NCBI RefSeq assembly: GCF_018398935.1
Contig: NZ_CP074694.1
Location: 5,820,001 to 5,852,000 of the forward strand
Direction of reading: 5' to 3'
Length of the DNA: 32,000 nt
Source of the DNA: Telmatocola sphagniphila
GTDB taxonomy: Bacteria > Planctomycetota > Planctomycetia > Gemmatales > Gemmataceae
Part shown: positions 5,353-17,728 of the stretch, piece by piece
Layout of the letters: each line of letters begins with the position of its first letter
How positions within the stretch are numbered: the first letter of the stretch is position 1
The notes under the pieces: generated by a model
What the model was told of the DNA's origin: nothing
Seen by the model: the letters and a program-made list of their open reading frames with translations, nothing else
Database searches by the model: none
Made by a program: the position numbers and the translations under genes

Positions 5353-5841
5353 ATGGCCGATGATCTGATTGATCGAATGAACGCCGCCTGGCGGCAACAA
5401 CGACCCGATCTCGATCCCACTCCGCTCGAGAGTGTCGGCCGGGTCATCGTGCTCGCCAAGCACCTGGAAAAATCGGTGGAGGCAGCTCTCGAATCTCACG
5501 ATTTAAGCCTCGGCCAATTCGATATTTTGGCGACGCTACGGCGTCAGGGGGATGGCGGAAAATTGACGCCGGGGCAATTGATGGAAAGCGTTATGCTTTC
5601 CTCGGGAGGCATGACGAATCGACTCGATCGACTCGAAAAAGCCGAGTTGATTCAGCGTTATGCCGATCCGGACGATCGCCGGGGAGTGATGGTCGGCTTG
5701 ACGGCCAAAGGCAAAAAACTGATCGATGCCGCGACGAAAACGAGATTTGAAGAAGCCCGAAAATCGATGCCGCCGCTCACCGAACGGCAGACGGAACAAC
5801 TGATCGATTTGTTGCGCAAATGGCTGTTGCAGTTCTCTTAA
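5353..5841 (+). CDS. MarR family transcriptional regulator
   Basis: The start is trimmed to the ATG at 5353 (MADDLIDRMNAAW...). A winged-HTH MarR signature is present (LSLGQFDILATLRR..., LTPGQLMESVMLSSGGMTNRLDRLEKAELIQRYADPDDRRGVMVGLTAKGKKL). Confidence 0.85.
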   Translation: MADDLIDRMNAAWRQQRPDLDPTPLESVGRVIVLAKHLEKSVEAALESHDLSLGQFDILATLRRQGDGGKLTPGQLMESVMLSSGGMTNRLDRLEKAELIQRYADPDDRRGVMVGLTAKGKKLIDAATKTRFEEARKSMPPLTERQTEQLIDLLRKWLLQFS

Positions 5842-6761
5842 ATTTTCCGTCGGGCCAGTCCGACTTTCAGGCCCTTCAAAAACAGCTTCAGCTTTTCCAC
5901 TTTTCTCAGCTTGGGCCGCCGGGACAGCACGTCGTAATTCTGCTCTTCGATTTTGCGGAGAATTGCCAAACCCCCCTGTCGAAACAGTTCGATATCGATC
6001 CGTACCTTGCGCGGCAGCCGTGCAATAAGGGGTTGGCCTTCCATAAAAAACTGTTGGGCTCGATGCACTTCGAAGATCATCAGTTGTCGAAATTCCTGCG
6101 TAAAGTGCTTCTCCAGAATATCACTTTCGGCCACGCTGAAACGGAGAAGATCTTCTTCGGGAAGGTAGATTCTGTTCAGATTGTCGAAATCCCGCGCGAT
6201 ATCCTGCCAGAAATTAGTCAATTGCAGGCCGGTACAGATCAGATCAGAGAGCCGGGCATTTTCTTCGGTATAGGCTTCGCAAAGATATAGCACCAATCGG
6301 CCGACGGGATTCGCCGAGTTCTGGCAATATCCCAGCAGCTGTTCAAAGCTGGAATAGCGATTGATCAACTGATCCTGTTCGAAGGCAGTCAGCAGATTTA
6401 AAAAGGGTTCCCGGGGAATCTGAAACTGCTTAATCGTCTCGTTCAGTGCGACCATTACGGGATGCCAGGCTTCGTTCCGGTAGCAGGCTTCGAGTTGCTC
6501 CCGCCACCATTTCAGCAGTTCCAGCGCCTGCCGGGAGTCAGCAATTTCATCGCCCAGATTATCGGCCCAACGGCAGTAACTGTAAATCGCCTGGAAATGC
6601 GGAACTAATTTTCGGGGAAGGAGGTAGGAAACGACCGTGAAGTTTTCATAGGTGCATTGAGTGAGTTCCGCACAATACGCGCGGGCTTGCATCAAACTCA
6701 CTGGGATCGGGGCGGCGGCAGGACCATATTTCGCCAGATCCTGATGAAATTTCAAATCCAT
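5838..6761 (-). CDS. hpnC: squalene/phytoene synthase family protein, HpnC-like
   Basis: 307 aa. It carries the N-terminal YENFTVVSYLLPRK motif that I associate with HpnC. The Asp-rich motifs are RWADNLGDE and WQDIARDFD...RIYLPEED. The HpnC versus HpnD/CrtB assignment is from memory only. Confidence 0.6.
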   Translation of the reverse strand: MDLKFHQDLAKYGPAAAPIPVSLMQARAYCAELTQCTYENFTVVSYLLPRKLVPHFQAIYSYCRWADNLGDEIADSRQALELLKWWREQLEACYRNEAWHPVMVALNETIKQFQIPREPFLNLLTAFEQDQLINRYSSFEQLLGYCQNSANPVGRLVLYLCEAYTEENARLSDLICTGLQLTNFWQDIARDFDNLNRIYLPEEDLLRFSVAESDILEKHFTQEFRQLMIFEVHRAQQFFMEGQPLIARLPRKVRIDIELFRQGGLAILRKIEEQNYDVLSRRPKLRKVEKLKLFLKGLKVGLARRKI

Positions 6762-6809: not shown

Positions 6810-7772
6810 TCATTCGTCGCGATTCTGAACGTACTGGTAGCCGAATCGGCCCTTAATGCAGAGATGGCCGTGAGTGACTTCCACATCCAGGGGCGAAGTC
6901 ACTTTCACGATCGAATTGTCCTGAACGTGTAAAGTCAGCGTGCAGCCTACGCCACAGAAGGAGCAGATGGTATCGGTCTGGGTCTGTTTGCTTTCATCCC
7001 AGGTGCCAGCGGCGCGCATGTCGAATTCGCTTTTGAACATGAGTGCACCGGTAGGGCAGACGCCGATACAGTTGCCGCAGTAGACGCAAGCTGAGTCGGG
7101 CAAAGGCACATCCGCTTCCGTCGAGATATGAGACTGAAATCCCCGCCCTGCAACAGCAATCGCGAACGTATTCTGCGCATCGGTGCCACAAGCTTCGACG
7201 CACTTATAGCAGAGAATGCACTTGGAGTAATCGCGAACGTATAAGTCGTTGTCGATCTTAACCGGAACCTGGGTCGTGCGGGCCTTCGTGCCATCGACGG
7301 CTTCTGCGTGATCGTGAGTTCTCGCAGATTCCTTTCGCGGCCCGTAGCGATCCGGCTTCGCGTCGTAGCGTTCGATGTAAGATTGGGCTTGCGGCGCGGT
7401 TGAGAGATCGACGGAAGAGCCGAGGAATTCCAATACCATTTTGCGGGCGAGCCGAACGCGCGGCGAATCGGTCTGGATGACCATCCCCGCTTCGATCTTG
7501 CGGGAGCAGGCCGGTACTAATGTCCGCGCCCCGGTCAATTCCACCACACATATCCGACAGACATTCACGGGAGTCAGATTTTCGAGAAAGCACAAAGTGG
7601 GCGTATCAATTCCCAACGAACGGGTCACGTCGAGAATAGTCGAAGTCTTGGGCGCTTGCACCGTTCGGCCGTCAATGGTGATATCCACCAGCTCGACCAC
7701 CGGTTCGGCGGGGGGTAACGGTATCCGCGTGGAAACGGGCGGAGCCTGAAACCAATAGCCGTCATTGCTCAT
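6810..7772 (-). CDS. formate dehydrogenase iron-sulfur module (NuoG/FdsA N-terminal-like: 2Fe-2S, 2x 4Fe-4S, FS0 4Fe-4S), encoded as a separate protein
   Basis: The Cys motifs are C-x10-C-x2-C-x13-C (2Fe-2S), CILCYKCVEAC and CVYCGNCIGVCP (ferredoxin-type), and CSFCGVGCTLTL...HLCIKG (Mo-bisPGD-family FS0 domain). The protein ends ...RFGYQYVQNRDE*. Its ATG overlaps the upstream stop (ATGA at 7769-7772). Confidence 0.9.
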   Translation of the reverse strand: MSNDGYWFQAPPVSTRIPLPPAEPVVELVDITIDGRTVQAPKTSTILDVTRSLGIDTPTLCFLENLTPVNVCRICVVELTGARTLVPACSRKIEAGMVIQTDSPRVRLARKMVLEFLGSSVDLSTAPQAQSYIERYDAKPDRYGPRKESARTHDHAEAVDGTKARTTQVPVKIDNDLYVRDYSKCILCYKCVEACGTDAQNTFAIAVAGRGFQSHISTEADVPLPDSACVYCGNCIGVCPTGALMFKSEFDMRAAGTWDESKQTQTDTICSFCGVGCTLTLHVQDNSIVKVTSPLDVEVTHGHLCIKGRFGYQYVQNRDE

Positions 7773-9634
7773 GGCTGACCTCGTTCCGCGAACAGACCCT
7801 TCAAGTTTTTCAACGCCGACTCGACTGCGCTCGAAGCCGTCTGGCCCAAACCGCAGATGGAAGCATCCCGCATGACCTGACCGATTTCTTTAAGAAGATT
7901 CAATTCTTCTTCGCGACTCACCAGCGGCTGCTGGCTCCTGAGCCTATGAAATAACTCTTCCTGGCGAACCGTTCCTACCCGGCAGGGGACGCACTGGCCG
8001 CAGGATTCAGCTCGGAAGAATTCGGCGATGCGAGTGAGGATGTCGGTCATATCGACGCGATCATCGAAGATGATAATCACGCCCGAGCCAAGCGTGGCGT
8101 TGGCGGCTCGGGTTCCCTCGAAGGTGAGTGGAATATCCAGCTGATCGGGGCCGACAAAGACCCCGGCCGCTCCGCCGAGCAGAATCGCTTGAATCTTCCG
8201 ACCTTCAGGTACGCCGCCCGCTATCTCAATCATCTGGCGAAGTGTTGGGCCGAAAGTCGTCTCGTAGACGCCAGGCCGGGCAACATGACCCGAGAGGCAG
8301 AACAGTTTAGGCCCCGTAGAACTCTCCGTACCGAGTTGGGCATAGGCTTTGCCGCCCTCTTTCAGGATGAGTGGGATATTGACCAGCGTCTCAACGTTAT
8401 TGATGACCGTAGGCTTGCCAAACACACCCTCTTGAACGGGAAAGGGAGGCTTATTGCGAGGCTCGCCGCGTTTTCCTTCGATCGAATTGAACAGGGCAGT
8501 TTCTTCCCCGCAAATATACGCCCCGGCGCCGCGACGAATCTCGATATCGAAATTCAAACCCGACTCAAGAATATTCTCGCCGAGAAAGCCAGCGAATCGG
8601 GCCAAGTCGAGCGCCAGAGCTAAACGCTTGCCCGCCAGGGGGTACTCGCCGCGAAGATAGAGGAAGCCTTTTTCGCAGCCGGTGGCCAGCCCGGCGATGG
8701 TCATCCCCTCGAGAACGGCAAACGGGTCGCCTTCCATCAGAAGTCGATCTTTGAAGGTTCCCGGTTCGGATTCATCCGCGTTACAGACCAGGTAGTGGGG
8801 CTTCGCCGGCGCTTTCGCGACAGCCTCCCATTTTCGACCTGTGGGAAAGGCCGCGCCGCCACGGCCCATTAACTTGGAATCAAGAACTTCGCGAATTACC
8901 CCTTCGGAACCGAGTGCGAGGGCCTGTTTTAGCCGGGCATAGCCTCCAGAAAGAATATAAGCTTCAATACTTTCAGGATCGATTTTGCCGATCCGCTTTA
9001 GGAGTCGCAGCTCCCGTGAACCGGACGGAGGGATAGATCGGCTCAGATTTTGAAACGGCTCATCCACCGGCCAAGCGTTCTGCTTCAATCCCTGAGTAAT
9101 TTCTTCTCCACTGGTGGGAGCCAAAGTAATACCACGTGGTGTCGTAGCCGCTTGCAAAGTCAGGGCAGCGGGAGCCCGCTCGCAAAGTCCCAGGCAAGGA
9201 CTGCGCTGCCAACTTCCTGAGCCTGAGGGGCCTAACGTTTTTTCCAAATCCTGGCAGAGGTTTTCGCCACCTTTAATCCGGCAGGCAATATCGTCACAAA
9301 CATGGACCACCGTAGAAGGCCGAGGGCTAAGGCTGAAGAGGTGATAGAAGGTGGCAACGCCGTAAGCTTCTGCCGGGGGGACAGAGAGTCGCTGGCAGAT
9401 GTAGTTGAGGGCGCCTTCAGATACCCAACCGATACGCCCTTGCACGGCATGGAAGGCCTCGATCAAGCGATGCCGTTGAGTTCGCGATTCCTGACCTCCT
9501 ACTAATGCAATTCGGCCTTCCTCGTTCAAGTTGCGTAGTCCGCCCATCCAGGCCGAAGGGGCAGGGCCGAGCAGCCCGTCGACGGCTTCGCGCTCCTGAG
9601 GACTCGCCGTATCACCATGAATGTGAAGATCCAT
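7769..9634 (-). CDS. NAD(P)H-binding flavoprotein subunit of formate dehydrogenase (NuoE-like + NuoF-like fusion; FdsG-FdsB / Fdh1B type)
   Basis: 621 aa. The N-terminal part is NuoE-like (VCDDIACRIKG..., SPCLGLCERAP). The rest is NuoF-like (GRGGAAFPTGRKWE, YLVCNADESEPGTFKDR, ESCGQCVPCRVGT, ICGLGQTA). Its start overlaps the upstream stop (TGATG at 9632-9636). Confidence 0.9.
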   Translation of the reverse strand: MDLHIHGDTASPQEREAVDGLLGPAPSAWMGGLRNLNEEGRIALVGGQESRTQRHRLIEAFHAVQGRIGWVSEGALNYICQRLSVPPAEAYGVATFYHLFSLSPRPSTVVHVCDDIACRIKGGENLCQDLEKTLGPSGSGSWQRSPCLGLCERAPAALTLQAATTPRGITLAPTSGEEITQGLKQNAWPVDEPFQNLSRSIPPSGSRELRLLKRIGKIDPESIEAYILSGGYARLKQALALGSEGVIREVLDSKLMGRGGAAFPTGRKWEAVAKAPAKPHYLVCNADESEPGTFKDRLLMEGDPFAVLEGMTIAGLATGCEKGFLYLRGEYPLAGKRLALALDLARFAGFLGENILESGLNFDIEIRRGAGAYICGEETALFNSIEGKRGEPRNKPPFPVQEGVFGKPTVINNVETLVNIPLILKEGGKAYAQLGTESSTGPKLFCLSGHVARPGVYETTFGPTLRQMIEIAGGVPEGRKIQAILLGGAAGVFVGPDQLDIPLTFEGTRAANATLGSGVIIIFDDRVDMTDILTRIAEFFRAESCGQCVPCRVGTVRQEELFHRLRSQQPLVSREEELNLLKEIGQVMRDASICGLGQTASSAVESALKNLKGLFAERGQP

Positions 9635-11559
9635 CAGGACCGCACTTTCTGGGGCTCAATGCGCACCGCGGCGGCTTTGAACTCGGCCGTGCCTGCTTTA
9701 GGATCGGTGAAGTCGATCGTCAGCAGGTTGGTGGCTACTTCGTCCGGAAAATGGAAGGTCATGAAAGTTAGTCCCGGCCGCAATCCCCGATCGATTCGGG
9801 CCGGGACTTCCAGGCTGCCGCGACGCGAGATCACTTTCACCAGATCGCCGTCATGCACTCCGAGAGTCTGGGCATCTTCGGGAGAGACGTCCAGCGTTTC
9901 GCCGCGACGCAGCGGCGATTGATAACCCGCGGTTTGCACGCCGGTGTTGTAGTCATCGAGCCGCCGACCAGTAGTCAGTCGATAGGGATATTCGGGGCTG
10001 AGCTTTTCATGCGGCGGGTCATGCTCGACGGGATTAAAAGCCACTCGGGGGCCATTCAAAGGTTGTTCCCAGAGACGGCTATGCAGGAACATTTCCCCGG
10101 GATGATTTTCATCGTAGCAGGGCCATTGCAGTCCGTTGTGTTTTTCCAATCGGGCATAACTCAGCCCGGCGTGTGCAGGACTCAAGGCGCGAACTTCGTT
10201 CCAGATGTCCTCACTCTTGGGTTTACCCCAATCGTGTCCCAGCCGGCGAGCCAGTTCGAAGAGGATATCGAGATCATCGCGAGCCTGGCCGGGTGGATTC
10301 AAGGCTTTTCGAACGCGCTGAACCCTTCGTTCGCTGTTTGTGACAGTCCCTTCGCTTTCGCACCAACCGGCAGCAGCTGGTAGCACGACTGTGGCCAGTT
10401 CCGCCGTCTTGGTCAGGAAGATATCCTGAACCAGGAGAAAATCGAGGCTTTCCAAGAGTCGTCGGGCTCGGGTTTGATCGGCTTCGGACTGGAGTGGGTT
10501 TTCGCCAATCACGTAAAGCGCTTGCAGTTCGCCATGCTCCATCGCCTCAAACATTTGCGTGAGGTTCAAGCCGCGTTTTGGGGGGATTTTGGCCCCCCAG
10601 TGTTTCTCGAACTTCAAGCGGAACTCATCGACTTCGACGTGCTGAAAGCCGGGCAATCGATCGGGCAGGGCTCCCATGTCGCCGCCGCCTTGCACATTAT
10701 TCTGGCCGCGAAGGGGATTCAGGCCGCAGCCATAGCGGCCGACTTTACCGGTCAACAACGCCAGATTGATCAGCGACAGCACATTATCGACGGCATTATG
10801 ATGTTCGGTTATGCCTAGGGTCCAGCAGATAATTCCTTTATCCGCTTTGGCGTACGTATGCGCCAGTTCGCGGATCACCCGGGCCGGGACGCCCGTTTCC
10901 CGCTCCGCATACTGCAGCGTGTAGGATTCGACAGCCTTTCGATATTCCTCGAACCCAGTGGTGGCGTGGTCAATGAACTGCTGGTTCTGTAATCCGGCCG
11001 CGATGATCTCGCGACCGACGGCATTCGACAAAGCAATATCGGTTCCGATATCCAGACCCAGCCACTGGTCGGCCCATTGCGTGGAACTGGTTCGACGGGG
11101 ATCGATGGCGAAGAGCTTGGCTCCGTTATGTATGCCCTTGAGGAGATGATGAAAGAAGATCGGGTGCGTCTCCCGGGCGTTAGAGCCCCAAAGGAGAATC
11201 ACCTCAGTCTCTTCGATTTCGCGGTAGGAATTGGTGCCGCCGCCCATCCCAAAGACTGTCGCCAGACCGACGACGCTTGGGGCATGTCAGGTGCGGTTGC
11301 AGCTATCGATGTTATTACTGCCAATCACCACGCGAGTAAACTTTTGAGCGATGTAGTTCATCTCGTTGGTAGTTTTAGAACAGCTGAATAACCCGTAGGC
11401 TTCAGGCCCCTGTTTTTCGACAACTCGCTGCAATCCCTGGGCCGCTCGGTCAAGCGCTTCTTCCCAGGTGGCGGGTCGTAATGAACCGTTTTCGCGAACG
11501 AGAGGAGTTGTCAGTCGGGGATAAGGTTTCTTCGGGGTTCTGTTGTTCATGTTCCACAT
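9634..11559 (-). CDS. fdhA: formate dehydrogenase catalytic (Mo/W-bisPGD) subunit, selenocysteine-containing; lacks the usual N-terminal Fe-S domains
   Basis: Track ORFs 11287..11559 and 9634..11247 share one frame and are separated only by a TGA (11287-11289). The readthrough product reads ...AQKFTRVVIGSNNIDSCNRT-U-HAPSVVGLATVFGMGGGTNSY..., colinear with E. coli FdhF around Sec140. Downstream motifs include GLNPLRGQNNVQGGGDMGALP. The product is 641 aa including Sec. An alternative ATG lies at 11550. Confidence 0.85.
11248..11289 (-). promoter_or_regulatory. UGA(Sec) codon plus bacterial SECIS hairpin
   Basis: The mRNA is UGACAUGCCCCAAGCGUCGUCGGUCUGGCGACAGUCUUUGGG. The outer stem is CCCAAG/UUUGGG and the inner stem is GUCGUC/GGCGAC (one G-U pair). 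The apical loop GGUCU sits at +22..+26 from the U of UGA. As I recall it, the E. coli fdhF SECIS has the same loop sequence at the same spacing. Confidence 0.75.
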
Positions 11560-11688: not shown

Positions 11689-12516
11689 ATGACCCAGTCC
11701 GAAATCCCGGAAGGCCCTGTTCCCGAGTCGATCCAGACCCGAAAAATTGTTGCGATCCCCGCCGTCGGCACGGAGGAGGCCCGGATAGATCCGGTGGCCG
11801 TCGAGGCGCCGTTGGAGTTACGTATTAACGGACAGGCGGAAACCGTGATGATGCGAACGCCCGGCCACGATGAGGAACTGGTTCTCGGTTTCCTGTATGC
11901 GGAGAATGTGATATCGGAAATAGGCGATATCGTCGCGATGGAACGGCCGAATGCGGAAAATATCCAAATTATTGATGTGAAGCTCACCTCCACTCGCAAG
12001 TTTCAGGGAATGGATCGTCCCCTCTACAGCAATTCCAGCTGTGGAGTTTGTGGTAAGCGCTCTCTTGCTTCGCTGGAAGTGCACGGCCCGCGCCTGGAAT
12101 CGGATTTTCGTTTAAATCGCAATCTGTTGTGCCCCCTGCCCGGTCGGTTGCGGAAGAATCAAAAATTATTTAGCGAAACCGGGGGAGTTCATGCGGCCGG
12201 GCTCTTTAGTCCGGAAGGTTCGCTGGTCACACTTCGGGAAGATGTGGGCCGGCATAACGCGCTCGACAAACTGATTGGCTGGGCCTTAAGTGAAGGTCTG
12301 GTTCCACTCAACGAGTTTATTCTTCTCCTTTCGGGAAGAGTGAGCTACGAACTGATTCAGAAAGCTATCCGAGCCTCGATCCCAGTCGTGGCAGCGGTCG
12401 GGGCGCCCTCGACGCTAGCCATCGAATTGGCCGAGCAGTTCGGCATCACCCTCCTGGGTTTTCTGAAAAACGATCACTTCAATTGCTACTCGCACTCTTC
12501 ACGCATCGCTCTCTGA
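11689..12516 (+). CDS. fdhD: formate dehydrogenase accessory sulfurtransferase FdhD
   Basis: 275 aa. Motifs are SSCGVCGK and the signature DVGRHNALDKLIGW. It is divergently oriented from the FDH operon. Confidence 0.9.
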   Translation: MTQSEIPEGPVPESIQTRKIVAIPAVGTEEARIDPVAVEAPLELRINGQAETVMMRTPGHDEELVLGFLYAENVISEIGDIVAMERPNAENIQIIDVKLTSTRKFQGMDRPLYSNSSCGVCGKRSLASLEVHGPRLESDFRLNRNLLCPLPGRLRKNQKLFSETGGVHAAGLFSPEGSLVTLREDVGRHNALDKLIGWALSEGLVPLNEFILLLSGRVSYELIQKAIRASIPVVAAVGAPSTLAIELAEQFGITLLGFLKNDHFNCYSHSSRIAL

Positions 12517-12686: not shown

Positions 12687-15600
12687 ATGTTAAAAAAAAC
12701 AGTTGTCACTCTGGCGATCACCGCCGGTGCGGTTTCTACCGGGATGTATTGGCTGGGTAATCCCAGTCATGCTGAACCCCAAAAACAACTTGCAAGCAAT
12801 TCTGAAGCACGGGAGCCTCGCGAACCCCGGCAGGATGATCCTCTGAAAGCCACGGCCAAATTACCCATCACTCAGGTGGTGATGTTCAACAGCGGCGTCG
12901 GCTACTTCCAGCGCTCCGGGCCGGTCGATGGCGATGCCCGAGTCGAATTGTTGTTTCCAGCCTCCGGCATCAACGACATGATCAAAACGTTGGTCATCTC
13001 GGACAGTAAAGGCAAAATCACGCCTTTACGATACGACAGTCAGGAGCCGATTGAGAAGACACTGAAGAGTTTTGGAATCGACCTCAGCGGCAATCCCTCC
13101 TACGGTCAATTGATCAATCAGATACGCGGCGAAAAAGTCGAAGTGACCATGGGTAACACCGGGAATCTGCCCGCAACCATGCAAGGTACGATCATGGGCA
13201 TGGAATCGCAGATGCGCGGCGAGCCAGGTAAGCCTGCAACGGAAAAAGAGTTTCTGAATCTTCTCTGCTCGGAAGGGTTGCGCAATATTCCACTCGCGGA
13301 TATTCAGCGGGTGCGTTTCCTCAACCCGGTTCTCGAATCGGAATTGAAACGAGCTCTGGAAGTCGTTTCCATTGGCCATGATTCGCAGAAGAAAACGGTT
13401 CGCCTCGGATTTCGGGGCGAAGGGAAGCGGGACGTCAAGGTCAGTTATGTGGCCGAGCACCCGATTTGGAAAACGAGCTATCGCATTCGGCTGGATAAGA
13501 ACGGCAAAGCCAAAATGGAGAGCTGGGCTACGGTCGATAACACTTCCGACGAAGACTGGCAGGATGTGAAGCTGGTGCTGGTTTCCAGCCGGCCGATCAG
13601 CTACCAGATGGACATGTACGCTCCGCTGAATATTCCCCGGCCTATCGTGGAGCCGGAACTGTTCGCCTCACTTCGCCCACCTACTTACGGTGGCCCCATC
13701 GCCAGCGGTGGTAATGGGATATTCACCCAGCCGTTAACCAATCCCATATATGCGAACAATTCGATTCCATTGCAGAATGGTGGTATCGGAGGTGGAATAA
13801 ATGGAGGATTTCAGGGCCCGGGGAATCCGGGAGGACAGGGCGGACAACTTGGATTTGGCGGTGGTCAAATGGGTTTCGGAACCCAAGGCGGCTTTAATCT
13901 ACCGGCCAACAAATACCAGAACTTCGCCAATAATGAACAGGCGGCCGCCAATGGAAAGTTGAGTTATCAGGAGTTCGCCAACCGCCGACTTCAAGATAAC
14001 AACAATAAGGCAGCCAAGCCCAACCAGGCGGAGGTCCAGCAGGCGGCCCAGGTGGGCAGCATCATCTCCGATGTCGATCCTAAACTCATCGAAGCGGCTC
14101 TGGCCTCCTCCGAACTGGGGAATCCGTCCCGATTTGTGGTCGAAGAGAAGATTCGTCTTCCCCGTCAGCAAAGTGCGATGATTCCGCTGTTTGATCTGCC
14201 CTTGGAAAGCGAGCAGGTCAGTATTTACAATCCTCGCGTGCAGGCCAAGCACCCGCTGAACGGCTTGCGAATCAAAAATCCTACCAAACAATCTCTGATG
14301 CAGGGGCCCATCAGTATCGTCAGCGACGATCAATATGTGGGGGAATCCCGCATTCAGGATCTTCAGCCGGGCGAACAGCGGTTCGTCAGCTATGCCGTGG
14401 ATGTGGGCGTCGAAATCAAGCCGTATGATACGGTCAGCCCCAGCCCGACGATGACGGTATCGGTGAACAACAATCAACTCAGCGTGGGGTATCGCCTGCG
14501 TTCCACCCGCACGTACGCGATCAAAAACAATACCCCCGAAGATCGCGTGATCATCATCGAGCAGGCGCTCCGAACCGGCTGGCAACTGGTCGACGAAAAG
14601 AGTGCTTTGGAGACAACTCGCGATCTTTATCGATTCAAGGTTCCGGTCAAATCGGGGGAACTGGTCAAGTACGAAGTGAAAGAAGAACTGCCCAGGATTG
14701 ATCCCTTTGCCATTACCAAGCACACCAATTGGAATGGTTTTGCCACGACACTGGGACTGGATGTCTGGACCACCAACGAACGCGACCCGGAAGAGAAATT
14801 TTCCGTCCGCGTCGATAACCCGAACCTGATTGTCGTCACCCATAAAGATCGACGCAAGGTGACTTATAACATCGTCAATCGTTCCGATGTGGAACGCACG
14901 ATTGATCTCGAGCATTTCCTCCCGGCCGATCGCCAGATTATCGGGGAAATGAAGCCCGATCCGCAGAATAAGCTCAAATTCACGACTAAACTCGTGCTTC
15001 CCGCCTTGAAAAAGGATGTCGAGCCCAAACCGGTGACCTTCACGGTCGTTGAAGAAAACCGCGATACGATTCACGAGCCGTTCTCCCTGGTTGGCATCAC
15101 CCAGCGCGGGCCAGTCTCGGCTGTGCCCGCTCCGGCCAGCGTGGAAGATCTGCCACCCGCCCGCTTCATTACTCCTCTGGGAATTGAAGTCTGGCATCGC
15201 ACGGAAGTCCTGCCGGAAACCCTCGTCAGTGGCAAGTTCAGTAAGGGACTTTTCGACGCCTCCATCCATGATCGTCTGAAGCATGTGTACACAATTCGCA
15301 ACACCGCAGCCGCCGCTCGCACAATTATGGTGGAGCAAATTATTCCCGCAGGCTCGTCGCTGGCCGGGACTACACAAGTGGCTGGTCAAGGAGGTGCACG
15401 CAAAGAGTATGTCGTCGCCGTGGATGCGGGTAAGATCCAGGTTCAGGACAGTATTGTCGAAACGAAAGTGAAGCGTTCCTGGACCTTCGAACAGTTGTTG
15501 GCGATGCCGGAAGAGACTTTGAAGAGTTACACCAAGTCCGACAAACTGGCAAAAAATGTTCAGGAAGCTTTGGAAAAAGGTCTGGGCATGCTGACGGCGT

Positions 15601-15854
15601 TGCGAACTCTGGAAGCATCGTTGAAAGAGCAGGCGGCTGCGATCAAGTCGATCACCGAAGAACAGAAGCGTGTGACCGAAGCATTCGAAAAGCTGCCCAA
15701 TTCGACGCCTCTCTATAAGCGGTATCTGGAGAAGCTGGAGAAACTGGAAACCAGCCTTGAGAAATCGCAATCCAGCGTGAAAGAAATGGAAGAGAGCCAG
15801 AAGAAGCAAAAAGCCGAATACGAAGCCTATGTCAAGAAGTTGACGGCCGAGTAA
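12687..15854 (+). CDS. large exported DUF4139-like (MuiA-like) protein with a low-complexity insert, tandem C-terminal modules and a coiled-coil tail
   Basis: 1055 aa with GAGG 7 nt upstream of the ATG. The N-terminus is hydrophobic (VVTLAITAGAVSTGMYWL). Segments such as YVAEHPIWKTSYRIRLD...ATVDNTSDEDWQDVKLVLVSSRPISY and GPISIVSDDQYVGESRIQDLQPGEQRFVSYAVD resemble DUF4139 as I remember it. The family assignment is unverified. Confidence 0.85.
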   Translation: MLKKTVVTLAITAGAVSTGMYWLGNPSHAEPQKQLASNSEAREPREPRQDDPLKATAKLPITQVVMFNSGVGYFQRSGPVDGDARVELLFPASGINDMIKTLVISDSKGKITPLRYDSQEPIEKTLKSFGIDLSGNPSYGQLINQIRGEKVEVTMGNTGNLPATMQGTIMGMESQMRGEPGKPATEKEFLNLLCSEGLRNIPLADIQRVRFLNPVLESELKRALEVVSIGHDSQKKTVRLGFRGEGKRDVKVSYVAEHPIWKTSYRIRLDKNGKAKMESWATVDNTSDEDWQDVKLVLVSSRPISYQMDMYAPLNIPRPIVEPELFASLRPPTYGGPIASGGNGIFTQPLTNPIYANNSIPLQNGGIGGGINGGFQGPGNPGGQGGQLGFGGGQMGFGTQGGFNLPANKYQNFANNEQAAANGKLSYQEFANRRLQDNNNKAAKPNQAEVQQAAQVGSIISDVDPKLIEAALASSELGNPSRFVVEEKIRLPRQQSAMIPLFDLPLESEQVSIYNPRVQAKHPLNGLRIKNPTKQSLMQGPISIVSDDQYVGESRIQDLQPGEQRFVSYAVDVGVEIKPYDTVSPSPTMTVSVNNNQLSVGYRLRSTRTYAIKNNTPEDRVIIIEQALRTGWQLVDEKSALETTRDLYRFKVPVKSGELVKYEVKEELPRIDPFAITKHTNWNGFATTLGLDVWTTNERDPEEKFSVRVDNPNLIVVTHKDRRKVTYNIVNRSDVERTIDLEHFLPADRQIIGEMKPDPQNKLKFTTKLVLPALKKDVEPKPVTFTVVEENRDTIHEPFSLVGITQRGPVSAVPAPASVEDLPPARFITPLGIEVWHRTEVLPETLVSGKFSKGLFDASIHDRLKHVYTIRNTAAAARTIMVEQIIPAGSSLAGTTQVAGQGGARKEYVVAVDAGKIQVQDSIVETKVKRSWTFEQLLAMPEETLKSYTKSDKLAKNVQEALEKGLGMLTALRTLEASLKEQAAAIKSITEEQKRVTEAFEKLPNSTPLYKRYLEKLEKLETSLEKSQSSVKEMEESQKKQKAEYEAYVKKLTAE

Positions 15855-15873
15855 GTCCTTGGAACGAAAAAAC

Positions 15874-15903
15874 GAGAGCCGCGAGGGAATCCTCGCGGCT
15901 CTC
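15874..15903. terminator. bidirectional terminator hairpin between convergent genes
   Basis: GAGAGCCGCGAGG-GAAT-CCTCGCGGCTCTC is a perfect 13-bp stem. It is preceded by AAAAAAC and lies between the stops at 15854 (+) and 15920 (-). Confidence 0.8.
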
Positions 15904-15919
15904 GGCACTTTCCGTTCGA

Positions 15920-17728
15920 TCAATTCAAAAGCTGATCGAGTTCATCCACCATGCGGGCAAATTTTTTCAGGGCCGCTTCGACGGGTTCGGGAGTTTCCAT
16001 ATCGACCCCCGCACCGCGCAAGAGATCCAGCGGATCTTTAGAACTGCCGCTCTTCAGGAACCCCAGATAGGCATCCAGTTCTGATTTTCCGCCGTGCAGG
16101 ACCCGTTCCGAGAGGGCAATCGCCGCGCTCAGTCCGGTAGCGTACTTGTAAACGTAAAAGGCGCGATAAAAATGGGGGATTCGAAGACACTCCAGCGAGA
16201 GTTCTTCATCAAGGGTGAATTCCGGGCCGAAATAGGCATCTAGGAGTTTACGGTATTCGGCACGCAGCGTTTCCAGGGTCAACGGTTCGTTTTCTTCCGC
16301 CAGTGCGTGCGTCACCTTTTCGAACTCGGCGAACATTGTCTGGCGAACGATGGTTTTGCGAATGTCATCGATCTCCCGATTCAGATAGTAAGCTTTCTCC
16401 CGAGCGTTGCTGGCGGTTTTACGCAGCATCTCTCCCAGCAGCTGTTCGTTGAAGGTGCTGGCCACTTCGGCGACGAAGATCGTGTAGTTCGCGTACTGGT
16501 AGGGCTGATTCTTGCTCGAGTACCAGGTATGCATCGAGTGCCCGGCCTCGTGAGCGAGCGTGAAGATATGATCCAGCACATCCGGCTGATAGTTCATCAG
16601 GATGTAAGGATCGCTATCGTAGCAGCCGCTGGAGAACGCGCCACTGTGCTTGCCCTTGTTCTCGTAGCGATCGCACCAACGGCCTTTTAATCCTTTGGTC
16701 AGGGCGTCGATGTACTCACTTCCCAGAGGCTTCAAGGCCGCAATAACTTTTTCGACCCCCTCGTCCCAGGTGTTGCGAGTTTGCAGATCGCTCAAAATCG
16801 GAACGTACGTGTCGTACATGTGAATATCAGGCAGTTTCATTGCTTTGCGGCGGACTTGATAGTACTTATGCACGGCCGGAAGATAGTTATGGATGGCCGT
16901 CAGAAGATTGTCGTAGACGCTGAGAGGCACTTTATCGGGAAACAGCGACGCTTCCCGAGCCGAGGAGAAGTTGCGGACTCGTGCCTGATAGACATCCTGC
17001 TTGATGCTGCCCGCCAGGGTGGCCGCTAAAGTGTTAGCGTGGTCGTTGAACTCGCTGTAGTACTGATGGAAGGCGGTTTTGCGAACTTCCCGGTTTGGAT
17101 TTTCCAGACAGACGATGTAAGAACTGTGGCTCAGTTCGATTTTTTCGCCGGGGGATAGTTCGATCTCGCCGAATTTCAAATCGGCATCGGTGAGTTGATC
17201 GAAGACATTGCGCGGTGTCTGCGAAGTCTCGATCTGCATGGCCAGAATACGCTCTTCTTTTTCGCTCAGCGTATGTGGCTTATAGCGCACCAGTCGTTCG
17301 AGGGACAGCTTGTATTCCGCTAGGAGGGGGGACTTCAGATAATCCCCCAGGGTGGCGTTGGGCAGGTTTAGAATTTCCGGTCGAATATAGCTCGCCAGTT
17401 CGGCGGCCCGGCTGGCGACTCCGATGTACCGCGCCTTCATACCCTGGTAGTTCGAATTCGAAACATCTTCGGTTTCTTTCAGGAACGCATAGGTCCCAAT
17501 GCGGTCCCCCAAACGATCGAAGGCCGTGTCGAACTTCAGACATTCAGAGAGTAACTGAGCACTTTCCCCCAGCTTGCCGCGAAACTGGTTGTAGCCTTCC
17601 GCTTTCTTTTCGTAGTCTTCGAAGGTCTTTTCCCAGGCTGCATCGCTCTCAAAAAGACTGTTCAGATCCCAGGTATCTCCCACGGGAACTTCCGAACGCA
17701 GGGGCAGCTTTTTCGTTCCGCTCGACAT
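15920..17728 (-). CDS. pepF: oligoendopeptidase F (M3B family)
   Basis: 602 aa. It has the zinc motif HEAGHSMH and typical PepF length and N-terminal region (W.L..LF.......). Confidence 0.9.
   Translation of the reverse strand: MSSGTKKLPLRSEVPVGDTWDLNSLFESDAAWEKTFEDYEKKAEGYNQFRGKLGESAQLLSECLKFDTAFDRLGDRIGTYAFLKETEDVSNSNYQGMKARYIGVASRAAELASYIRPEILNLPNATLGDYLKSPLLAEYKLSLERLVRYKPHTLSEKEERILAMQIETSQTPRNVFDQLTDADLKFGEIELSPGEKIELSHSSYIVCLENPNREVRKTAFHQYYSEFNDHANTLAATLAGSIKQDVYQARVRNFSSAREASLFPDKVPLSVYDNLLTAIHNYLPAVHKYYQVRRKAMKLPDIHMYDTYVPILSDLQTRNTWDEGVEKVIAALKPLGSEYIDALTKGLKGRWCDRYENKGKHSGAFSSGCYDSDPYILMNYQPDVLDHIFTLAHEAGHSMHTWYSSKNQPYQYANYTIFVAEVASTFNEQLLGEMLRKTASNAREKAYYLNREIDDIRKTIVRQTMFAEFEKVTHALAEENEPLTLETLRAEYRKLLDAYFGPEFTLDEELSLECLRIPHFYRAFYVYKYATGLSAAIALSERVLHGGKSELDAYLGFLKSGSSKDPLDLLRGAGVDMETPEPVEAALKKFARMVDELDQLLN

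Follow-up and report, generated by a model that had tools for sequence, protein, structure and literature searches.

A probable selenocysteine codon in a formate dehydrogenase gene of the planctomycete Telmatocola sphagniphila

Introduction

Does an in-frame TGA in the genome of Telmatocola sphagniphila end a gene, or is it read as selenocysteine (Sec)? The question is raised by a 32,000-nt stretch of contig NZ_CP074694.1 (assembly GCF_018398935.1, positions 5,820,001 to 5,852,000 of the forward strand; hereafter the window, in whose coordinates all positions are given), in which two minus-strand open reading frames (ORFs), 11287..11559(-) and 9634..11247(-), lie in the same frame with a TGA at 11289-11287(-) between them. 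An earlier note, made from the letters of the window, had proposed that both ORFs belong to one selenocysteine-containing formate dehydrogenase (FDH) gene whose mRNA carries a selenocysteine insertion sequence (SECIS) of the Escherichia coli fdhF type directly after the UGA. The analysis reported here makes it very likely that this TGA is the Sec codon of an FDH gene, with a SECIS hairpin 3' of the UGA, and the earlier note was a correct call of a mis-annotated gene. The comparative evidence is presented below, followed by the points against this conclusion, the competing explanations and the type of enzyme that the locus may encode.

A single reading frame and its annotation

The minus-strand codons around the site read GGC AGT AAT AAC ATC GAT AGC TGC AAC CGC ACC TGA CAT GCC CCA AGC GTC GTC GGT CTG GCG ACA GTC TTT GGG ATG GGC. 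Translation of 9634-11559(-) yields 641 codons with a sole internal stop, codon 91 (...GSNNIDSCNRT*HAPSVVGLATVFGMGGGT), and the frame of this 1926-nt gene is intact apart from the TGA, with no further disruption. Based on translation, Pfam, TIGR01591 and comparison with the Protein Data Bank (PDB), the feature at 9634..11559 on the minus strand can be described as a complete selenoprotein gene for the catalytic subunit of an FDH of the Mo/W-bis-PGD (pyranopterin guanine dinucleotide) type, in which the UGA at 11287..11289 (minus strand), aligned with the homologous column and with E. coli fdhF, would be read as Sec91, a ligand of Mo or W.

Pfam recognizes Molybdopterin (PF00384, 5e-74) and Molydop_binding (PF01568) in the read-through product, which, searched with Cys in place of the TGA residue, matches the NCBIfam profile TIGR01591 (Fdh-alpha) with 688.6 bits over profile positions 52-672; the curated cut-off of 666.25 bits is passed solely when the TGA is read through. 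The closest solved structures in the PDB are all formate dehydrogenases (E = 1e-158 to 1e-124), including 1aa6 (E. coli FDH-H) and 6tg9 (Rhodobacter FdsA), and the alignments are continuous across the TGA column ('nnvdhCarlCHaPtvagl'), with the TGA falling on the catalytic Cys/Sec before the conserved His. The active-site block CNRT-U-HAPS aligns with CAR(L/V)-C/U-H of the PDB FDHs and of E. coli fdhF, and Arg284 (PLRGQNNVQG) is invariant in the protein alignment of the homologues; His92 and Arg284 of the Telmatocola protein are taken here to correspond to His141 and Arg333 of FdhF. In tblastn comparisons with the 80 homologous loci described below, homology to FDH catalytic subunits is unbroken over the TGA, from residues ~3-15 to ~635. 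That the two same-frame ORFs are one gene is borne out by the single internal stop and by this homology, in tblastn and in the PDB, running across the TGA.

The annotation pipelines have dealt with the gene in the way that the earlier note anticipated, by truncating it. The NCBI protein P0001 ('molybdopterin-dependent oxidoreductase', Telmatocola sphagniphila, 100% identical) has 522 amino acids, starts at a GTG at 11202 (Val121) and spans 9634-11202 (-), so that the first 120 residues are missing, the catalytic Sec91 and His92 among them. From an independent Telmatocola assembly another caller yields two products of 87 and 537 amino acids, and from two close relatives (81% identity) products of 87 and 533 amino acids. 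Homologues at 76-82% identity in the protein collection are nearly all of about 535-540 amino acids, with 83% query coverage, which suggests that they were truncated in the same way.

Conservation at the selenocysteine column

Homologues were sought in one genome per species, which gave 80 loci representing more than 10 phyla. The alternation of Sec and Cys codons for which the earlier note had proposed looking among orthologous FDH genes was found: opposite the TGA, 67/80 loci have TGA and 13/80 have TGC or TGT. The TGA-bearing loci belong to Gemmata and other Planctomycetota, Methylomirabilota, Chloroflexota, Acidobacteriota, Eremiobacterota, Dormibacterota, Verrucomicrobiota, Gemmatimonadota, many Actinomycetota, Bacillota and delta-proteobacterial lineages, and the nearest relatives (81% identity) likewise have TGA; the 13 Cys-type loci come from Streptomyces, Nocardiopsis, Amycolatopsis, Nonomuraea, Sphaerisporangium and one Methanothrix. 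The peptide around the column, NN(I/V)DSCNRT-x-HAPSV, is essentially invariant on either flank, and the conservation of orthologues, which a true truncation would not be expected to show, continues past the TGA. This alternation of TGA and Cys codons within an invariant peptide is the classical signature of a Sec/Cys pair. The resemblance to the Sec-site block of E. coli FdhF that the earlier note had pointed out proved correct, as the fetched fdhF sequence reads ...TNNVDCCARV-TGA-HGPSVAGLHQSVGNG, with the two TGA codons aligned.

Some of the loci retrieved call for a separate remark. Locus L013 (DATLRQ010000161.1), labelled 'Candidatus Micrarchaeaceae archaeon', contains a bacterial-type operon (molybdenum cofactor subunit, NuoEF fusion and Fe-S subunit, see below) with a TGA and a bacterial SECIS, and is probably a mis-binned bacterial contig. 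The catalytic gene of L049 (L049:10001-11895) was matched by tblastn in two pieces, in different frames or gapped, and the matches to the NuoEF gene are likewise broken in L004, L036, L047 and L056; each of these breaks reflects a frameshift, an insert or an assembly error in the genome concerned.

The SECIS hairpin and its covariation

The SECIS hairpin, delimited by folding, covariation and a covariance model, lies within the coding sequence at 11246..11283 on the minus strand. In the predicted fold the upper (inner) helix of 6 bp is formed by 11274-11269 and 11263-11258, and it is closed by the apical loop GGUCU at 11268-11264, that is, at +22..+26 from the U of the UGA. The lower helix pairs 11283-11276 with 11253-11246 (8 bp), and the 6-bp outer stem drawn in the earlier note (11281-11276 with 11253-11248) lies within it, in the register that the comparative consensus favours. 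Folding hence recovered both tiers of the hairpin proposed directly 3' of the UGA, and the fetched E. coli fdhF confirmed that loop sequence and register are the same as in that gene.

Evidence for selection on this structure was sought in a gapless alignment of 60 nt (6 upstream, the UGA and 51 downstream) comprising the window and 49 Sec-type orthologues, 49 distinct sequences with the window row counted. The structure evaluated was the hairpin of the earlier note with the lower helix extended to 8 bp, and 500 shuffles served as the null. Across the 49 distinct Sec-type sequences every cell of the upper helix (100%) is paired. The pair formed by synonymous third positions of Val and Ala codons is C-G in 44, G-C in 4 and U-A in 1, with 0 mismatches, and a second upper-helix pair shows one switch from C-G to G-C. 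None of the shuffles (0/500) reached the observed pairing values, and registers slid along the alignment were 31-58% paired. When 16 more distant Sec-type homologues were added the upper helix was still 99.7% paired, and the number of C-G to G-C exchanges rose to 13. The control consisted of 12 Cys-type orthologues, whose encoded peptide is almost identical; in these the pairing of the upper helix amounts to 66.7%, which does not exceed that of shuffles. The loop GGUCU, read as the Gly-Leu codons GGU CUG, is present in 49/50 Sec-type rows, whereas GGUCU is found in 1/12 Cys-type rows, where the Gly codon is GGC in 7, GGG in 3, GGA in 1 and GGU in 1. On this comparison the hairpin is conserved by compensatory change and is specific to UGA-bearing genes.

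At gathering thresholds Rfam gave no match in the whole window. Twelve related loci were scanned with Rfam as well and none reached the gathering level, Sec-type relatives included; because these relatives fail too, the Rfam SECIS models are too narrow to test the element, and a custom covariance model (R1) was therefore built from 64 Sec-type sequences, leaving out the window. On the 32-kb window R1 gave a single match, at 11236-11295(-), with 72.9 bits (E = 3.6e-13). Scores of 68-79 bits were obtained for held-out Sec-type relatives and of 32-48 bits for Cys-type orthologues, and the model matched the authentic SECIS of E. coli fdhF in register with 24.8 bits. The scan of the Infernal type suggested in the earlier note had in this way a divided outcome, with no Rfam family at its gathering score and a hit of the custom model (72.9 bits) at the site.

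In one orthologue from a farmland metagenome contig in ENA (L085:407-466, protein P0014) the Sec column is occupied by CGA (Arg). This locus keeps a perfect SECIS hairpin (GUCGUC GGUCU GACGAC), which scores 67.7 bits with the custom covariance model, and the CGA reflects a T-to-C change that happened very recently, or else an error in sequencing.

Points against Sec decoding and the Sec machinery

Several observations weigh against decoding of this UGA as Sec. The minimum free energy of the hairpin (-18.7 kcal/mol) is not better than chance when set against shuffles (mean -21.0, z = +0.73). The thermodynamic z score is uninformative for a GC-rich coding segment, and because the free energy is no better than chance, the case for the hairpin rests on the comparative data, which make it a very strong one. 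The bulged U17 of the upper stem, which is a determinant for E. coli SelB and is not universal among bacterial SECIS elements, is absent: the predicted fold pairs U17 with A31, and the family consensus there is U-A or U-G. A permissive Rfam scan of 11150-11400 returned SECIS_3 (RF01989) alone, with 11.9 bits, where the gathering score is 63; this match spans the full model (1-59) and is in register with the UGA, so the element resembles SECIS_3 in register and in length of match and differs from it in score, not being a member by the Rfam criterion. The lower helix is 80% paired in Sec-type and 70% in Cys-type sequences, with no clear difference between the two, and it was rejected as independent evidence, given that its pairing is largely dictated by conserved amino acids. 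Finally, ARAGORN found no tRNA-Sec in the window or in flanks extended ~10 kb past each end, and neither Pfam on the large ORFs nor motif scans for SelA, SelB and SelD detected selA, selB or selD in the window, nor were these genes found in the ~10 kb past each end, the stretch of the Telmatocola genome examined for these genes amounting to roughly 52 kb.

Indirect support for a Sec machinery comes from relatives. In three non-planctomycete loci (L009, L028 and L035, from Chloroflexia, Thermoleophilaceae and Geodermatophilaceae) a tRNA-SeC adjoins the orthologous FDH operon, the neighbours related to Sec insertion lying at L009:3652-7052, L028:5398-9205 and 15092-15184, and L035:9775-9868. NCBIfam identifies selA (442-480 bits) and selB among the neighbours in L009 and L028, together with selD in L028 (396 bits); the cut-offs are passed by these genes except selB of L028, which is fragmented across frames, probably by indel errors in this long-read metagenome-assembled genome (MAG). 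Within the planctomycetes, complete sets of Sec-insertion genes have been reported in Gemmata obscuriglobus, of the same family (Gemmataceae), and in Isosphaera pallida (PMC4807772). A literature search on selenoproteins of Telmatocola found nothing. The Geodermatophilaceae MAG (L035) has in addition a second molybdopterin oxidoreductase paralogue (L035:4587-6479, 37% identical), located 3.5 kb upstream of the Sec-FDH gene and tRNA-SeC.

Alternative explanations

If the TGA were a genuine stop, the locus would hold a pseudogene, or would produce two polypeptides of about 90 and about 522-537 amino acids. This would agree with the existing annotation, in which the NCBI product has only 522 amino acids and other pipelines give 87 and 537, as well as with the lack of sel genes in the roughly 52 kb examined. 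It is difficult to reconcile, however, with a stop at the exact catalytic column in 67/80 loci of many phyla, under strong purifying selection on both flanks, and with a frame that shows no other disruption in 1926 nt; moreover, the downstream piece would be left without the metal-ligating residue, and the compensatory SECIS changes and the loop conservation in 49/50 rows are confined to TGA-bearing genes. A genuine stop is considered quite improbable. As to an error of sequencing or assembly, with TGC or TGT as the true codon, a single-base difference would suffice to produce one. An assembly error is unlikely because the whole 1926-nt gene, TGA included, is identical in a second assembly (Logan, run SRR14506984). 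TGA is likewise present in all close relatives, and Cys-type genes are without the GGUCU hairpin that the Telmatocola gene has, leaving this explanation with a practically negligible probability.

A different possibility is recoding of the UGA as something other than Sec, with Cys or Trp being inserted by a near-cognate or misacylated tRNA, or with read-through persisting after partial loss of the Sec pathway. Insertion of Cys at UGA codons meant for Sec occurs in some bacteria under selenium limitation, and a Sec machinery in the Telmatocola genome itself is presumed. On the other hand, a SelB-type hairpin kept intact at synonymous sites is sensible only under SelB-dependent decoding; tRNA-SeC, selA, selB and selD adjoin the operon in relatives, and Gemmata has the full set (PMC4807772). 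Non-Sec recoding is regarded as highly improbable. Decoding of the UGA as Sec accounts for the same hairpin, and its maintenance at synonymous sites argues for active SelB-dependent decoding in Telmatocola.

The observations establish that the gene is continuous, where its TGA lies, that the SECIS covaries and what the operon contains. On this basis a mechanism can be outlined by analogy with E. coli fdhF, from which both the actual insertion of Sec and the binding of SelB are inferred. The mRNA 3' of the UGA would fold into a bacterial SECIS with the GGUCU loop 22-26 nt from the U of the UGA. A complex of SelB, GTP and Sec-tRNA(Sec) would bind this hairpin and supply the ribosome with Sec, so that translation continues instead of ending at the UGA, giving a 641-residue Mo/W-bis-PGD catalytic subunit in which Sec91 would ligate the metal and His92 and the conserved Arg284 would complete the active site. 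This subunit would be co-translated from one operon with a NuoE-NuoF fusion, providing flavin mononucleotide (FMN) and a NAD+/NADH site, and with an Fe-S subunit resembling the N-terminal part of NuoG, and FdhD would sulfurate the cofactor. If Sec is inserted, the tryptic peptide expected across the junction is T-U-HAPSVVGLATVFGMGGGTNSYR, with Se at position 2.

Operon organization and type of enzyme

Downstream of the catalytic gene lies a gene (7769..9634, minus strand) for a fused NuoE-like and NuoF-like subunit, equivalent to FdsG plus FdsB, of 621 amino acids, with predicted 2Fe-2S, FMN/NAD(H) and 4Fe-4S sites (PF01257, PF01512, PF10589; TIGR01959 nuoF_fam, 460 bits). It shares 1 nt with the catalytic gene, whose stop runs into its start in a TGATG junction. 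The next gene (6810..7772, minus strand), whose start overlaps the stop of the NuoEF fusion (ATGA), encodes an Fe-S subunit of 320 amino acids that corresponds to the N-terminal third of FdsA/NuoG (PF13510, PF12838/PF00037, PF04879), with a 2Fe-2S domain, two ferredoxin-type 4Fe-4S domains and a C-terminal Molybdop_Fe4S4 domain (PF04879, residues 265-317 of 320). Divergently oriented, at 11689..12516 on the plus strand, is fdhD (PF02634, 1e-70; NF001943 FdhD, 273.9 bits against a cut-off of 269), which encodes the sulfurtransferase required for maturation of the molybdenum cofactor of FDH.

The catalytic polypeptide is without the N-terminal Fe4S4 domain, its match to TIGR01591 beginning at position 52, and positions 1-52 of the same profile are found in residues 268-319 of the Fe-S subunit, which carries the module that the catalytic gene is missing. 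The best-supported picture is that of an alpha subunit that has been split, its Fe-S half having become the last gene of the operon. The split alpha subunit with permuted order occurs in 61 orthologous loci (L001-L060, L063) from many phyla, and the order of catalytic gene, NuoEF fusion and Fe-S subunit is the same in every orthologous locus whose sequence extends far enough, whether Sec-type or Cys-type. In homologues at 42-46% identity (among L061-L080) the Fe-S module is fused directly ahead of the catalytic domain, as in FdsA.

Comparison with characterized systems places the enzyme apart from FdhF. Telmatocola and E. coli fdhF (FDH-H, Sec140) share the UGA at the homologous catalytic column, the His next to it and a coding-region SECIS right after the UGA, with GGUCU at +22..+26 formed from the homologous Gly-Leu codons GGU CUG. 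The Telmatocola upper stem differs in being a continuous 6-bp helix closed by C21-G27, in which U17 is not bulged. The match to the E. coli FdhF PDB chain (E = 1e-140) covers FdhF residues 58-687 only, and the protein, without N-terminal Fe4S4 domain and encoded in a NuoE/F/G-like operon, is unlike the hydrogenlyase-type monomer. The term 'fdhF-type' used in the earlier note holds for the SECIS, but it does not extend to the enzyme. An orthologue of E. coli FdhF (the hydrogenlyase FDH-H) was rejected as an assignment, the Fe4S4 domain being absent and the gene being translationally coupled to those of the NuoEF fusion and the Fe-S subunit.

The FdsABG enzymes (Rhodobacter capsulatus 6tg9, Cupriavidus necator type) are closer in composition, with a NuoE-like 2Fe-2S part, a NuoF-like FMN/4Fe-4S part, a NuoG-like Fe-S chain and a Mo-bis-PGD domain. 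The catalytic gene aligns with FdsA residues 308-932 (E = 2e-128), and FdhD (FdsC-like) is adjacent. The Telmatocola system is unlike them in that the FdsA equivalent is split between the Fe4S4 and molybdopterin domains with the Fe-S half last, FdsG and FdsB are fused, and the active-site residue would be Sec, not Cys, which the characterized FdsABG enzymes use. No FdsD was identified. Judged from domain content, the enzyme most likely resembles FdsABG in being a soluble formate:NAD+ oxidoreductase of three subunits, and it would have Sec as ligand; we infer both NAD+ as the electron acceptor and the identity of the metal.

A Sec-containing fdhA in an operon with nuoEF, and not with sel genes, has been described in the planctomycete isolate P1 and in Plesiocystis pacifica, an arrangement reported to be confined to these two genomes (PMC4807772). 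The Telmatocola gene resembles that of P1 in its planctomycete host and in the association of a Sec fdhA with nuoEF, whereas the Telmatocola-type order was found here in 61 loci of many phyla. It is put forward, as a tentative and still rather doubtful proposal, that the operon may represent a widespread clade of three-subunit, NAD-linked, mostly Sec-containing FDHs in which an FdsA-type alpha subunit is split exactly between the Fe4S4 and molybdopterin domains, with the Fe-S half last, in lineages associated with soil and wetland (for example Planctomycetota, Actinomycetota, Acidobacteriota, Chloroflexota, Gemmatimonadota). The literature search found no biochemical characterization of a split-alpha FDH clade, nor the split order of catalytic, NuoEF and Fe-S genes beyond PMC4807772. 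If the proposal is true, these enzymes would be Sec-dependent relatives of the oxygen-tolerant FdsABG enzymes, which attract interest as a means of CO2 reduction.

Significance of the locus

Among bacterial selenoproteins, FDH alpha subunits that contain Sec and have an fdhF-like SECIS are the commonest and most widespread. The mechanism considered here holds nothing new, and the gene is of a well-known kind that is often truncated by annotation pipelines; a Sec-FDH from a nuoEF operon of a planctomycete has been published before (PMC4807772). The split and reordered alpha subunit common to the clade is the only mildly unusual feature and might deserve an examination of its own. In dozens of relatives the gene is likewise divided into products of about 87 and about 535 amino acids, and owing to this fragmentary annotation metabolic reconstructions could miss a functional formate dehydrogenase and a selenium requirement. 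For Telmatocola the implication would be a working selenocysteine pathway in a planctomycete of a family described as aerobic chemoorganotrophs.

Neighbouring genes

A gene for an HpnC-type squalene synthase of the hopanoid pathway (TIGR03464, 333 bits) lies at 5838-6761 (-), 48 nt downstream of the Fe-S subunit gene and on the same strand; at this position the close relatives L081 and L082 have an HpcH_HpaI / 2-Hacid_dh gene instead. On the other side of the operon a 1055-amino acid ORF at 12687-15854 (+), with only a weak match to DUF4139, is nearly all overlapped by an opposing ORF of 674 amino acids at 13899-15923 (-) that has no Pfam match, and one of the two is presumably spurious. The window also contains a DUF1559/N_methyl gene, in keeping with a planctomycete.

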